A stretch of DNA of 64,000 nucleotides from an uncultured bacterium (GTDB taxonomy: Bacteria > CSSED10-310). This document shows positions 9,666 to 61,820 of the stretch, in pieces (position 1 is the stretch's first letter; each line of letters opens with the position of its first letter). A program made the translations under genes and the position numbers. The notes beneath the pieces are model-generated. The model saw only the letters and a program-made list of their open reading frames with translations, was not told the DNA's origin and did not search any database. The stretch lies in NCBI GenBank assembly GCA_964404285.1, contig CAYOJK010000007.1, positions 89,130 through 153,129 on the forward strand. Direction: 5' to 3'.

Positions 9666-10742
9666 TCAGCGAGATCGGCCATATTGAAGCTTTGAAAAAA
9701 GCTCAGTCAGTACAGGGTCGTCTTTATCTTCTTTTTCAGCGATAGTCTGCGGTAAAGCCATTTCTTCGACATACTCGCCTACAATCAATCCCAACCGGAG
9801 CTCCCCTAGTTCGCCGGGACTTTGATCAACACCATAGATTAAATCAACATCATCACCCCAATTTGAGGTTATCAGATGAGCAACCTCTTCAACTTCGAAC
9901 AGGCTTAACGGCCCATCAGACCGAAGATGCATTAAAAGACTTGCTTTACGATTCAGAAAGCTTTCTACAGAATAATCCACCATGATACTCTCGGCTACCT
10001 CTTGAGCACGATGTTGTCCTCTCGCCCGTGCAGTTACTATCGTACTGCTCGACGATCCCGTCAAAGCTATTCGAATACGATTGAAATCGATCGGAACCAT
10101 TCCTGGAGCCAAAGCATCCATCAATGCCTGAATTTTATCAGCAAAACTCGTGTTGAAAGCCTCCAAATAACCTGGAAAATCCGCTTGATCAAATACCACA
10201 GGAACTTCTTTCATAGCACACAATTCACTGATCGTTCCCCTAGCTGTCATATGACGTTTTCTTCCAACAATTTCAGCATCCGGTAAACTCAATAATGACA
10301 AACAGGGAATTCCCGCTTTATTGAAAAGGTTAGCTAGAGCGGTCGTAACTCCGGAACCAATACCATCACCGGGCTGAGCAATTAAAAGCACAAAAAATGA
10401 GGACAGGGTCAATTCCAGTAAATCCGAGCTGATTTCAGCCATAGCTTTTGAAGCGGCTAGGGGATCACCACTGCTAAAACCGCGATAACGAGTATTTAAA
10501 GCGATATGAATATAATCATCCTGTAAATTGGGCAAAGAATCATCCCAGTTAATGCGAAACAATAACGGTCGAAAATCTTTCCTAAAAGATATTTTTTGCA
10601 ATACTTCAGCTCCAAAATCACCTATTGCTATGACAGCAATCTCACCCTTAGGTCTGACGTGACCGTCTCTCCTGTTCATGATCCCCCTCCTTATCTTCAA
10701 ACTTGTCCTGCCAAATCGATAATGGCCAGATTTCAAAATCAA
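9666..10742 (-). CDS. Degenerate FtsZ/tubulin-like protein (probable non-catalytic FtsZ paralog)
   Basis: It is colinear with FtsZ over its whole length, but the nucleotide-binding motifs are substituted. GGGGGN is replaced by GDFGAE, GGGTGTG by GDGIGSG, NTDAQ by NWDDS, and the T7 NxDFAD by IDFNR. The true start probably lies downstream, near 10679. Confidence 0.55.
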   Translation of the reverse strand: MILKSGHYRFGRTSLKIRRGIMNRRDGHVRPKGEIAVIAIGDFGAEVLQKISFRKDFRPLLFRINWDDSLPNLQDDYIHIALNTRYRGFSSGDPLAASKAMAEISSDLLELTLSSFFVLLIAQPGDGIGSGVTTALANLFNKAGIPCLSLLSLPDAEIVGRKRHMTARGTISELCAMKEVPVVFDQADFPGYLEAFNTSFADKIQALMDALAPGMVPIDFNRIRIALTGSSSSTIVTARARGQHRAQEVAESIMVDYSVESFLNRKASLLMHLRSDGPLSLFEVEEVAHLITSNWGDDVDLIYGVDQSPGELGELRLGLIVGEYVEEMALPQTIAEKEDKDDPVLTELFSKLQYGRSR

Positions 10743-11073
10743 GCCCGGTTCCCATCACAACATACCGATCTGCTTTATTCGCCAGATCCAAATGCTTAAA
10801 CTGAACCCTTCCTTGCAAATCGATATTCAGAGACATAACGTTCAACATAAAAGCACGCCGTCTATCTCTGACATCAGGATCTATGGATTTTCCAGGTATC
10901 TCCACTTCAAGGACCTGTTTCAATCGACCCGGATCAGTGGCGACCCAATAGTTATCCATCGGGTAAACACACAATTCTCCTCCACGTTCAATATTTCCGC
11001 TTTTAAACAATGAGGTCGGCAAGGTGATTCGACCTTGTTTATCCAACTGTATAAAACTTGTATTAAAATACAT
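10648..11073 (-). CDS. mraZ: Transcriptional regulator MraZ
   Basis: It has the two DxxGR repeats (LDKQGRITLP and IDLQGRVQF) and an FEIW motif. It is 141 aa. Confidence 0.8.
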   Translation of the reverse strand: MYFNTSFIQLDKQGRITLPTSLFKSGNIERGGELCVYPMDNYWVATDPGRLKQVLEVEIPGKSIDPDVRDRRRAFMLNVMSLNIDLQGRVQFKHLDLANKADRYVVMGTGLDFEIWPLSIWQDKFEDKEGDHEQERRSRQT

Positions 11074-12902: not shown

Positions 12903-14183
12903 TTGAGATTATTCTCATCGACGTCTGATCTTGATCACCATCCTGGAGGTTTGTTTATGATTAGATCACCCAATCGTTCAATTATTCTGCTGTCTGGATT
13001 ACTGTTTGTAACCTTGGTCTTTTTTTCATGTTCCAACCAGGATTCGGCAAGTATATCCTCTGATGTATCTTCCTCTGAAAAAGCTGAAAATATTTCTATC
13101 GCTGGCTCAACAAGAGCTAAATCTGCTGCTGAGAACGGTCCTCGTATTGTGTTCGATGAAACCACTCATGATTTTGGACGGCAGTTATCCGGTGAAGATT
13201 TGGAAAATATTTTTACCTTTACAAACAAAGGTGACGGAACACTGATAATCGAAAACGTAAAAGCCGGGTGAGGATGCACGGCAGCTCTGGTTTCCACCAG
13301 AGAAATTCCTCCGGGTGAGGAAGGAAAAATCAAGGTTACGTTTAAAACAGCTCATCGTACCGGTATTAATAGACACAGCGTCACGGTCACTTCTAACGAT
13401 AAAACCAGTCCGAATATGCAACTCGAGGTTGTTGCCGACTTGTACCACTTGCTAACAGTAGCGCCAACAAGACAATGGTTTGGACAGGTTAAGCAGGCTG
13501 AAGAAACAACCCGCCAATTCGTTTTTGAGGGTTTGAAAGTTAACGAGGTTGAATTCACCAGTCTCAAATTGAAAGATGAGTTGAAAAACCAGGATGCTTA
13601 CACCTGGAAGATCAACGATGCAAAAACTGATGAGACTCGCCAACTGACTTTAGATGTAACCGTCCATGGAGATAAAATTCCTCCTGGTCGTTTTGGTGAT
13701 GTGCTGATTATCGAAACAAATCTGGAGCCGACAGTTACCCTGGAATTAGTTTTGACCGGAGAAATTCTTGGACCTGTTTCAGCAAATCCACAACGATTGT
13801 ATTTCGGCCAATTTGAGATAGACAAAGAAATGGAAAGTGTCCTCAAATTGATAGCCAATACCGATATTCCATTCAAAATTCTTTCAGCTTCTATTGAGGA
13901 TTCGGAGTTCAAAATTGATTCCTGGAATCGTGAATCTCTCACTGAACATTCGTTGACAATCCGCTTTTTACCTAAAGAGACTCGAGATAGAATACGCACA
14001 TCTCTATCGATAAAAACAGACCTGGAATCTCAACCAAACCTGGAAGTTGAAATTCACGCTTATCAACGTAGAACCGGTCAGGCGAGAGACATGAAACAAA
14101 TGGATGCTCGAAGTCTGACATCATCCATAAAAGAATCTGACAGTAGTTCAGTCATTAAGACTCGTAAATTAAACGATAATTAA
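12903..14183 (+). CDS. DUF1573-family exported lipoprotein with an in-frame TGA (candidate selenocysteine) at 13269..13271
   Basis: A TTG start is followed by the lipobox FFSC. The DUF1573 core is HDFG...FTFTNKGDGTLIIENVKAG-TGA-GCTAALVS...IPPGEEGKIKVTF. A single TGA interrupts one continuous frame, so ORF-track entries 12903..13271 and 13416..14183 are co-frame. The sequence after the TGA is still conserved. Confidence 0.6.
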
Positions 14184-14231
14184 TGCAGTTAACGTGAAGT
14201 GATAACGAATATCGCTTTTTGAGAGAGACAA

Positions 14232-15302
14232 GTGAAAAATAATGTACTAAACATGTTTATCCGCGTCAGTTGGATGATTGCTATAGTGACCTGTATGGCC
14301 ATCGTAAAAGGATCTGACATCCCAGGTGAAAAGTCACCTGGGATTGCGTTCGACACAGTGGACCATGATTTTGGTGATCAGGTTTCAGGAAAAATTCTAA
14401 AGCATACATTTACCTTTAAAAACTTGGGGGCGACCCTCTTCTCCATTAAAGATGTAAAGGCTGGGTGAGGATGTACTGCTGTCCTGGTATCATCCAGTGA
14501 CATTCCTCCGGGTGAGGAAGGAAAAATTGACGTTGCATTCGACACCCAGTATCGATCGGGAAAAAATACGAAAACCATTACAGTTCGAACTGATGACCCG
14601 AACAACACCCATGTACAATTATCGGTGACAGCAAATCTCGATCTTCAACTGGATTCTACGCCCCGGCGATTGTGGTATGGGAAGTTAAACGGACCAAATC
14701 CGGAAACACGTTCCTGCACACTATCAGGATCTCGTATTGAAGAACTCGAAGTAAAACAAATAAGAATAGATGGAAATATCCCTGAAAAAGCTTTTTCTTG
14801 GCTACTAAACGATCAACGGGATTCAGGTAAAGCAGTAACGCTCGATGTGACATTTTATCCTGATGAGGCCATACCCGGAAGATTTCTTCATCAATTGATC
14901 ATTGAGACTAACTTGATCGATACGCCGGAATTAGTTGTCAGCCTGGCTGGAGAACTTACCGGATTTCTGTATTCATCACCATCAAGCGTATTATTTGGTA
15001 ACTTTGAAACGGGTGTCTCCATGAAAAAAACCGTCACTATTCAAACCTATCAAGAAATTCCGTTTTCAATAATTTCAGTTGACTCCGCTGATTCAGATAT
15101 TTCTATTACATTAGACAATGATCAGAAATCTCTGGAACACGTTATTGCTGTGCTCTTTGAACCAAGTGAAGATCGATCGGATATCCTTCAAACACAGATC
15201 AAGATAACGACGGATCTGGAAAAACAATCGGATTTTCTTCTGGATATTCATGGTTTTCCTAGACGGGCACAAAAAATATTACCGCCTCGTGATCAGAAGT
15301 AA
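14232..15302 (+). CDS. Second DUF1573-family exported protein with an in-frame TGA (candidate selenocysteine) at 14466..14468
   Basis: It is a paralog of the upstream gene with the same VKAG-TGA-GCTA context. ORF-track entries 14232..14468 and 14625..15302 are co-frame. It has a signal peptide and a conserved IPPGEEGKI downstream of the TGA. Confidence 0.6.
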
Positions 15303-17062: not shown

Positions 17063-17159
17063 GGGAGCGGGTGGTGTCTGGTGATGCCTCCGGTCTTCAA
17101 AACCGGTATGGGGTCTTAAAAGGGTCCTAGGTGGGTTCGATTCCCATGCGCTCCCGCCA
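17063..17159 (+). tRNA. selC: tRNA-Sec (selC), anticodon UCA
   Basis: It is 97 nt with a long variable arm, the anticodon stem-loop CCGGT-CTTCAAA-ACCGG (anticodon TCA, which reads UGA), a GTGGG-TTCGATT-CCCAT T-arm, a long 7-8 bp acceptor stem, a G discriminator and an encoded CCA. The acceptor pairing at position 8 is imperfect (G-G) in my fold. Confidence 0.8.
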
Positions 17160-60587: not shown

Positions 60588-61820
60588 CTATTCAGCCTGG
60601 ACATCCTCTTGGTGGGCAGAGACACGTGTTTCCCAGTATGTTTGAAGCAGCTCCGGCCACTGTTCCTCCGGCACATTATGGGCAACAAGGCAGCGTTCAA
60701 AGACCTCATTCACATCAAGAACATCGAGTGTTTCCTCTTCATGGATTTGTCCCAGCACGCGGTCGATGATGCGATTATTCCTGATGCGGAGGATTTCGAT
60801 TTGAGAATCGGCAACAGCCTCCTCCAGGCGTTCACGCAGGTCGCCGATGACCTCAGCGCCATCGTAGATGACTTCGAGCCAGCGGCGTGACTCCATTGCT
60901 GACAACTCGGCAACGCGGTTTGCGATAGTCTCCCACTCCCCTTTGATGCGCTCAAGTTGCTGGAAAACGGGCACATCGACCAACTCTACAGATGCAGAAG
61001 AGCCTTCAAGCTCAACCAGGCAAACGCTCTTTTGCTGTTTTGCCTCTCCAAACCCCATAGGCAGAGGCGATCCGCTGTAACGAAAAGTTTCGGAGTCGTT
61101 CACCTTTTGCGGGACATGGAGGTGCCCCAGCGCGAGATAGTTAAAGCAGGCCGGAAAAATCCCGGCCGGTACGTGAGCCAGGGAGCCGAGATAAAGTTCG
61201 CGCACGCTATCATCACCATCAGCGACTTGCCCTCCTACGGTGAAGAGATGGCCCATGCCTATAATGGGAATATCACTGTTCAACTCCGCCCGTATCTGCT
61301 CAGCCAGAGCTCCGACAGCGGCATAATGCTTACCAATGCCTTCAACCAGTTTGCGCCCCTTGTCCTCAACACTCTCACCGGCCTCCACCGTGCGGATATC
61401 CCGGTCACGAAGGTAGGGGACGGCGCAGACAATTAATTCCGGGACGTCCCGCTCATTACGGAGCAGCAGCGCTTCGTCCTCCGGGGATGCGGCGCTACTC
61501 CCGACCACGTGGATATCAAGGGCCTTGAGCAGCTCTTTCGGAGCATTGAGAAAAGAAGGGGAGTCGTGGTTGCCACCGATGATAACAACATGGCGGCAGC
61601 ACGAGGCCGCCACCCGTCGGAGAAAGCGATAATAGAGTTCTTGGGCACGATTGCTTGGAGCGCTGGTATCAAAGACATCACCTGCCACCAGCAAGGCATC
61701 GATTTCATTCTGCTGAATCGTCTCAGCCAGCCAGGTCAGAAAAGCCTCGAACTCTTCATAGCGTTTTCTGCCATAAAGGCTGCGGCCGAGATGCCAGTCG
61801 GATGTGTGGAGAACTCTCAT
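60588..61820 (-). CDS. sbcD: Nuclease SbcD (Mre11-like)
   Basis: It has the MRVLHTSDWHLG, AGDVFD and GNHD phosphoesterase motifs. Confidence 0.9.
   Translation of the reverse strand: MRVLHTSDWHLGRSLYGRKRYEEFEAFLTWLAETIQQNEIDALLVAGDVFDTSAPSNRAQELYYRFLRRVAASCCRHVVIIGGNHDSPSFLNAPKELLKALDIHVVGSSAASPEDEALLLRNERDVPELIVCAVPYLRDRDIRTVEAGESVEDKGRKLVEGIGKHYAAVGALAEQIRAELNSDIPIIGMGHLFTVGGQVADGDDSVRELYLGSLAHVPAGIFPACFNYLALGHLHVPQKVNDSETFRYSGSPLPMGFGEAKQQKSVCLVELEGSSASVELVDVPVFQQLERIKGEWETIANRVAELSAMESRRWLEVIYDGAEVIGDLRERLEEAVADSQIEILRIRNNRIIDRVLGQIHEEETLDVLDVNEVFERCLVAHNVPEEQWPELLQTYWETRVSAHQEDVQAE

Follow-up and report, generated by a model that had tools for sequence, protein, structure and literature searches.

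What does an in-frame TGA mean when two adjacent paralogous genes each carry one, at the same residue of the same conserved motif? The question is raised by a 64,000-nt stretch of DNA from an uncultured bacterium of the CSSED10-310 lineage (contig CAYOJK010000007.1, positions 89,130 to 153,129 of the forward strand; hereafter, the window), in which two tandem genes, here called gene a and gene b, encode predicted exported proteins with a DUF1573 domain (PF07610). Based on homology, codon-level constraint and a conserved RNA structure, both are very probably genuine DUF1573-type selenoprotein genes, with the UGA of each predicted to be recoded as selenocysteine (Sec, U).

Translation gave one continuous plus-strand frame per gene that is broken by a single TGA and otherwise uninterrupted. 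The surroundings of the codon are nearly the same in gene a (VKAG-TGA-GCTAALVSTREIPPGEEGKIKVTF) and gene b (VKAG-TGA-GCTAVLVSSSDIPPGEEGKIDVAF), and the two proteins are 36% identical across their full length, in line with an initial annotation of this DNA that had described two adjacent paralogs with one TGA each in a VKAG-TGA-GCTA context. A six-frame scan of the window returned no further credible TGA-interrupted gene. Gene a likely begins at the ATG at 12957, which is preceded by GGAGG; the start at 12903 given in the initial annotation is merely the first TTG of the open frame, and the ATG is favoured over it. For gene b, the GTG at 14232 is the probable start, since the ortholog at locus L004 has an ATG at the same place. 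The identical sequence is present in contigs assembled from several independent metagenome samples.

The PF07610 profile matches both proteins well above the Pfam gathering score of 26.1 bits and runs across the TGA in each of them (gene a: 4.8e-26, 91.1 bits, residues 64-153; gene b: 9.5e-26, 90.1 bits). In an alignment with the full-length homologs P0016, P0017, P0019, P0025 and P0035, all of which encode cysteine (Cys) at the position concerned, the TGA column coincides with the first Cys of the motif [ST]-C-G-C-T. Indeed, the initial annotation had placed the TGA at the first Cys of a CGC(T) motif and had suggested that this be checked against the profile and against relatives with TGC or TGT at the codon; both the profile and such relatives were found to agree with the placement, and the Cys homologs proved to be single genes, not the pairs of separate half-genes that would have spoken for a split. 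A C-x-C motif, in nearly every case CGCT, is present in 73 of 90 database homologs. All of the 15 closest ones are fragments that start past the motif, the usual outcome when gene callers meet a Sec gene, and the downstream 'starts' called for them vary between genomes.

Species-representative genomes were then scanned with search patterns covering the peptide just after the TGA, which were derived from the closer 8-sequence alignment; a diverse 16-sequence alignment contained no conserved stretch usable as a locus search pattern. The scan yielded 45 loci, among them 35 genes of the same three-domain type as the window genes. All of these 35 genes (33 loci) have TGA at the motif codon, and they are spread over several phyla, namely CSSED10-310, Thermodesulfobacteriota/Deltaproteobacteria, Acidobacteriota and Zixibacteria, in addition to unclassified metagenome-assembled genomes (MAGs). 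The same codon being TGA in every one of them across phyla excludes chance. Further subclades carry the TGA in G-U-ACTA, G-U-GCAA, T[GA]-U-GCA and PP-U-GCDKH contexts. Inside the three-domain Sec clade itself, L021:6271 and L032:1640 show the motif variants G-U-A-C-T and G-U-G-C-A, and the spacer Gly and the Thr of the motif are thus not strictly required.

Relative to the 78%-identical L004 orthologs, the ratio of nonsynonymous to synonymous substitution rates (dN/dS) was 0.105 (gene a) and 0.102 (gene b) downstream of the TGA, and 0.156 and 0.21 upstream of it. Being low on both sides, these values argue that both halves are translated in frame and constrained; the value of about 0.10 past the TGA bears out the earlier proposal that this part is translated and under purifying selection. 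TGA also terminates 15 of the 45 other genes of the window, and the genetic code is therefore standard. As previously noted, a tRNA-Sec gene lies nearby. ARAGORN and Rfam (RF01852, 76.6 bits compared to a gathering score of 47) both recovered it, 1.76 kb past the end of gene b where 1.8 kb had been estimated, and we infer this tRNA to be the decoder of both UGA codons.

Downstream of the UGA, within the coding sequence, two successive hairpins (H1 and H2; Table 1) have the appearance of a Sec insertion sequence (SECIS). A gap-free alignment of the 75 nt around the TGA of 33 three-domain genes was folded with RNAalifold, which returned exactly the structure read by eye. Across these 33 genes, standard pairs were found in 97% of cells, with compensatory changes in five pairs (35 cells); in H1, four of the seven pairs show such changes. 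None of 500 shuffles matched the observed pairing or covariation score, and sliding the 3′ partners by 1-3 columns reduced pairing to 48-67%. At the level of codons, a Leu codon (CUG/UUG) covaries with an Arg/Lys codon (AGR/AAR) in the SECIS stem, and in H2 a Pro codon (CCU/CCC) covaries with Glu GAG or Gly GGG, which explains why the window genes encode PPGEEG and most relatives PPGGEG. Third-codon positions are invariant or covarying within the stems and freely variable in the loops and the spacer, and other subclades maintain H2 via different synonymous codons (UCCCUC...GAGGGA instead of UUCCCC...GGGGAA).

The hairpins also separate Sec from Cys genes. Over positions +13..+58, the 35 Sec genes form 6.7 of 7 pairs in H1 and 5.9 of 6 in H2 with a mean minimum free energy of -19.5 kcal/mol, as compared to 1-4 of 7 pairs, 2-5 of 6 pairs and a mean of -11.6 kcal/mol in 10 Cys-encoding homologs, this control consisting of Cys genes more distant than P0016 and P0017. 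It is the compensatory changes, together with the absence of the hairpins from Cys homologs, that make the two elements look like a SECIS. With respect to bacterial SECIS models, the spacing of H1 from the UGA is canonical and the loop of H2 is G-rich. SelB may bind either H1 or H2. An Rfam scan returned two tRNAs and no SECIS family, Rfam having no entry for bacterial SECIS elements of this type. The b-paralogs of L004 and L005 also allow the 8-bp form of H1 with a bulged U that is listed for gene b, and in L005 one C-G pair of it is replaced by U-A through compensatory change.

Table 1 Features of the tandem DUF1573 locus (window coordinates; the two family rows are numbered from the U of UGA)
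Feature	Position	Strand	Description	Basis
GGAGG ribosome-binding site, gene a	12945..12949	+	7 nt ahead of ATG 12957	read from sequence
Gene a	12957..14183	+	408-aa predicted DUF1573 selenoprotein; lipobox VFFS-C25; Sec105-Gly-Cys107; three Ig-like domains; TAA stop	translation
In-frame TGA, gene a	13269..13271	+	predicted Sec, residue 105	aligned to first Cys of [ST]-C-G-C-T
SECIS hairpin H1, gene a	13285..13302	+	CUCUGGU-UUCC-ACCAGAG; 7-bp stem	RNAalifold, pair counts
SECIS hairpin H2, gene a	13306..13322	+	UUCCUC-CGGGU-GAGGAA; 6-bp stem; G-rich loop	RNAalifold, pair counts
Gene b	14232..15302	+	paralogous predicted DUF1573 selenoprotein, 356 aa from GTG; Sec79-Gly-Cys81; three Ig-like domains; TAA stop	translation
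In-frame TGA, gene b	14466..14468	+	predicted Sec, residue 79	translation, alignment, ortholog codons
SECIS hairpin H1, gene b	14480..14502	+	8-bp stem with one bulged U	single-sequence fold
SECIS hairpin H2, gene b	14503..14519	+	UUCCUC-CGGGU-GAGGAA, same as gene a	
tRNA-Sec gene	17063..17159	+	anticodon UCA; long variable arm; encoded CCA end	ARAGORN, Rfam RF01852, fold
Family H1	+17..+34		7-bp stem; loop NUCN; begins 13 nt past UGA	
Family H2	+38..+54		6-bp stem; loop CGGGN, G-rich	

The pair had initially been put forward as a candidate for a new selenoprotein family. This part of the proposal fails, as PF07610 selenoproteins with a UxC motif have already been described as OS_HP2 and are modelled in NF041425. 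OS_HP2 was described in 2007 by Zhang and Gladyshev among the new selenoproteins of Olavius algarvensis symbionts (PMC1976440), and the 2008 Global Ocean Sampling study contains the entry 'OS_HP2, pfam07610, UxC' with 354 Cys homologs (PMC2398784). DUF1573/OS_HP2 selenoproteins are also listed in reviews of 2022 and 2026, and in the literature the family stands as a computational prediction. NF041425, 'OS_HP2 family (seleno)protein', is the best NCBIfam match of both window proteins, which score 79.5 (gene a) and 84.6 bits (gene b) and thus fall below its curated cut-off of 100 bits. For comparison, core two-domain OS_HP2 proteins of Desulfobacterales score 122-138 bits, other three-domain orthologs 92-105 bits (L023 passing at 105) and Cys homologs 82-84 bits. 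Scores under the cut-off make the window proteins neighbours, not members, of the NF041425 subfamily. In a neighbour-joining tree of domain 1, calculated without bootstrap, the three-domain Sec proteins, with the Cys proteins P0016 and P0017 nested among them, form a clade set apart from that of the two-domain core. The window genes are new members of the Pfam-defined DUF1573 UxC selenoproteins, in a sister subclade. As for sequence P0030 (276 aa), it is a chimeric open reading frame, in which the upstream and N-terminal part of an L004-like gene is read out of frame and the portion after the TGA in its true frame; a frameshift in the assembly or an error in gene calling would account for this.

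With respect to the proteins themselves, both products are predicted to be exported. The N-terminus of the gene a product (MIRSPNRS-IILLSGLLFVTLVFFS-C25) ends in a lipobox, where orthologs show VFFAC, PLSGC and LFTGC, and fits the lipobox pattern (PROSITE PS51257); the product would be a lipoprotein anchored at Cys25. Of the initially proposed pairing of a lipoprotein and a protein with a signal peptide, the lipobox of gene a is upheld, and for gene b the N-terminus is hydrophobic and signal-peptide-like and its AIVT-C does not fit the lipobox pattern. The fold was modelled on the Cys homolog P0017, which is 34% identical and of the same architecture, as a stand-in for the window proteins. Its AlphaFold2 (AF2) model (predicted local distance difference test score, 88) comprises three beta-sandwich domains, with C-G-C located where strand 69-76 turns tightly into strand 81-85. 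When this model was compared to the PDB with Foldseek, HYDIN/ASH-type and other immunoglobulin (Ig)-like repeats were the only matches, with no enzyme fold among them, and the top matches of HYDIN type belong to the ciliary central apparatus. PF22544 was likewise matched (1.5e-17 and 4.5e-14), and a sequence search of the PDB gave only spurious matches to RecA, with no solved structure detectable. Family-wide, the CxC pair is the sole universally conserved candidate ligand, the His of an HDFG motif not being conserved beyond this clade.

How might such a protein be made, and to what end? We propose that when a ribosome arrives at UGA105 of gene a or UGA79 of gene b, the codon would be read by Sec-tRNA(Sec), brought by SelB, which in turn would be recruited by the coding-sequence SECIS composed of the two hairpins at +17..+34 and +38..+54. 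In the exported product, the first Ig-like domain would carry G-U-G-C-T on a tight turn that links two strands, where Sec and the Cys two residues on could form a reversible selenenylsulfide and hence a redox centre in the envelope. The U-G-C pair may serve thiol/disulfide or sulfane-sulfur exchange in the cell envelope, a role whose chances we put somewhat short of even. It is favoured by three considerations. Sec almost always substitutes for a redox Cys. Two chalcogens one Gly apart can close an 11-membered ring that is strained and oxidising and thereby apt for disulfide exchange, as exemplified for CGC by the shuttle disulfide in the Erv2p tail and by CGC peptides mimicking protein disulfide isomerase. 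The third is the context of Cys homologs: P0025 and P0035, two distant three-domain representatives, are each encoded in one operon with a rhodanese that is anchored in the membrane and with MauE/DoxX (L054:1001-3092 and L057:3001-5483), and the MauE-like proteins bear a CxCFG motif of their own (C-G-C-F-G or C-S-C-F-G). Two other DUF1573 homologs are fused to cytochrome c domains. The DUF1573-rhodanese-MauE/DoxX operon may constitute a thiol or sulfur relay and so provide a lead to the function of DUF1573, to which the literature searched assigns none. A wider proposal, speculative and in our view distinctly unlikely to hold in all its parts, is that the three-domain G-U-GCTA proteins would form a distinct, phylum-spanning clade of extracytoplasmic selenoproteins, overlooked and cut short by present annotation models, with an unusual bipartite SECIS, whose G-rich SelB-type loop would lie about 40 nt from the UGA behind H1, and would act as the selenium end of an envelope thiol/sulfane-sulfur relay related to the DUF1573-rhodanese-MauE/DoxX modules of the Cys homologs.

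Several observations weigh against reading the two UGA codons as Sec. The hairpin region is unremarkable in single-sequence folding (z about -1.3), and some of the pairing in H2 comes free, given that P-P-G-G codons are by nature complementary to one another. The loop of H1 has no conserved G, H2 is farther from the UGA than in the usual bacterial SECIS model, and in gene b five of the seven H1 pairs form in the family register (14482..14499). The locus search patterns were taken from the SECIS region and thus favour Sec forms, which renders the tally of 35 out of 35 uninformative on the ratio of Sec to Cys. Finally, selA, selB and selD were not found in the window or in the 10-kb flank on either side, so that the remaining Sec machinery is deduced from the tRNA-Sec gene alone. 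The tRNA being the only component of that machinery to turn up there would also be expected if the TGAs were real stops, in pseudogenes, assembly errors or two separate genes per locus, and automatic gene callers do split each locus in two. Yet the same sequence recurs in several independent assemblies, the TGA is kept in 35 of 35 genes across phyla, dN/dS is low on both sides of it (about 0.10 past the TGA), and a stop would halve a beta-sandwich domain that both the Pfam match and the AF2 model span without a break; moreover, the called downstream starts are inconsistent among genomes and the Cys homologs are single genes. We therefore reject real stops as next to impossible. UGA has been reassigned in some candidate phyla, and decoding as Trp or Gly (codes 4 and 25), or else near-cognate readthrough, was considered on this account. 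It is likewise rejected, as extremely improbable: 15 of 45 ordinary window genes end in TGA and an internal TGA occurs in these two frames only, the codon aligns with Cys and not with Trp or Gly, and a tRNA-Sec gene and hairpins specific to Sec genes are present. With the UGA codons taken as Sec, what remains to be weighed is whether the proteins found a new, unrecognised family. In favour of this are their scores against NF041425 (79.5 and 84.6 bits at a cut-off of 100), the separation of the three-domain clade from two-domain core OS_HP2 in the domain-1 tree and the public records of close orthologs, which are truncated entries, 'DUF1573 domain-containing protein', starting after the TGA. 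However, both window proteins fall exactly under the published definition (a PF07610 domain in which Sec takes the first Cys position of UxC/UGC), the three-domain ortholog L023 passes NF041425 at 105 bits with others at 92-94, and the H2 sequence is shared with PP-U-GCDKH core OS_HP2 genes, which makes a new family very improbable.

Turning from decoding to function, the proposed exchange role is itself confronted with contrary evidence. The Ig-like fold is a non-enzyme fold, the rhodanese-MauE/DoxX context is found in just two of the five distant Cys homologs, and a comparison of 31 loci revealed no conserved functional partner beside the Sec forms, the neighbours being lineage-specific (TetR, NAD synthase and HAD hydrolase genes; in the window lineage, amidohydrolase, tRNA-Phe, methyltransferase and tRNA-Sec). 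Nor did tblastn with the rhodanese and MauE/DoxX partners give a match in any of the Sec-type loci, the window included. Alternatively, the U-G-C turn might bind a soft metal or metalloid (Cu, Hg, Zn, Cd, As) or selenium/sulfur, in which case the proteins would be engaged in metal handling or sequestration in the envelope instead of serving as redox relays. A non-enzymatic Ig-like sandwich that exposes two chalcogen ligands in a turn would suit such a role, no candidate ligand besides the CxC pair is conserved universally, and reviews list metal handlers next to DUF1573, that is, MerT/MerP-like proteins, a cation ATPase (UxxC), CopZ-like proteins and the Cu/Zn efflux transporter SO_0444 (UxC). 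On the other hand, a site of just two ligands in a tight turn would by itself be weak, the HDFG His is not conserved outside the clade, no metal-resistance or transport genes adjoin any locus, and the context of the Cys homologs is one of sulfur/thiol redox chemistry (rhodanese, MauE/DoxX, cytochrome c). We consider metal binding rather unlikely, and retain thiol/disulfide or sulfane-sulfur exchange by the U-G-C pair as the working proposal.

The organism is matched most closely by an unclassified MAG, at 78% amino-acid identity, and by CSSED10-310 MAGs, at about 51%. L004, L005, L006 and L008 share the gene order of this part of the window, which consists of an amidohydrolase gene, the DUF1573-Sec gene or genes, tRNA-Phe, a RumA-like methyltransferase gene, tRNA-Sec and an aspartate kinase gene. 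Other phyla do not have this order, which argues that the proximity of the tRNA-Sec gene reflects lineage-specific synteny and not a general linkage. The window and L004-L006 have a tandem Sec pair. In L007 (4771-5874), and at the same place in L008, the Sec gene is immediately preceded by a full-length paralog with the Cys motif C-S-C-T, so that there the tandem pair is one of Cys and Sec. In the domain-1 tree, again without bootstrap, the a-paralogs group apart from the b-paralogs, and the window, L004, L005 and L006 are represented in both groups. The duplication thus predates these lineages, with both copies having kept Sec.

Elsewhere in the window, positions 187-2350 on the minus strand are occupied by a probable island for restriction-modification and very-short-patch repair. 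It comprises genes for a Vsr endonuclease (187-594) and a C5 cytosine DNA methylase (1346-2350), with an open reading frame of 245 aa between them (598-1335); longer contigs show an N6/N4 methylase gene and a HinfI-like gene just past the left edge of the window. At 9666-11073, also on the minus strand, a very divergent FtsZ-like open reading frame (sole match FtsZ_C, 7e-6) overlaps the end of a MraZ-like gene, an arrangement that is kept in L004-L008. Beyond window position 61820, strains with sbcCD in common (L051 and L052) differ in the adjacent island, which contains type I restriction-modification and RhuM genes in one case and other methylase/helicase genes in the other, marking a defence region that varies at the window's right edge.

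Overall, the locus confirms known biology, in that two members from an uncultured CSSED10-310-like lineage are added to a family predicted in 2007. What is new is modest and comprises an unannotated three-domain clade, a Sec+Sec tandem pair, a two-hairpin SECIS and the rhodanese-MauE/DoxX lead. The three-domain branch is annotated as truncated 'DUF1573 domain-containing protein' entries because its scores sit just under the NCBIfam cut-off, and this annotation could be corrected. In addition, the ortholog set yields a well-supported two-hairpin SECIS model for the family that is backed by covariation, and the rhodanese and MauE/DoxX genes found in one operon with Cys homologs provide a testable lead on DUF1573 function.

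Among known systems, the core OS_HP2 proteins are like the window proteins in being exported PF07610 proteins with Sec as the first residue of U-x-C in the same turn. Their SECIS, too, resides within the ...EIPPGGEGKI... codons, and the H2 of the PP-U-GCDKH group (UUCCCC-CGGGC-GGGGAA) is the same as in most three-domain genes. In contrast, core OS_HP2 proteins have two domains, about 245-290 aa and a TG-U-GCA or PP-U-GCDKH context, whereas those of the window have three domains, 356-408 aa and G-U-GCTA; furthermore, the window genes, unlike the core ones, form a tandem pair with Sec in both copies. Three-domain DUF1573 proteins with Cys resemble the window proteins in architecture, in having a signal peptide and in the [ST]-C-G-C-T turn, at 23-34% identity along most of their length, but have TGC or TGT where the window genes have TGA, and lack the two hairpins. 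In the ASH, HYDIN and VesB-like Ig domains (PF15780, PF22544), the fold resembles that of all three domains of the window proteins; these are structural or adhesive repeats without CxC or UxC, and the likeness is limited to the fold. The CGC disulfides of the Erv2p tail and of the CGC peptides are set in a flavoenzyme tail or a thioredoxin-fold context, as opposed to the Ig-like sandwich of DUF1573, in which Sec would replace one of the Cys residues. Lastly, thioredoxin-fold oxidoreductases use CxxC or UxxC, while the window proteins would display U-x-C on an Ig-like beta-sandwich; any redox role of the latter is thus analogous, not homologous, to that of thioredoxin-fold enzymes.

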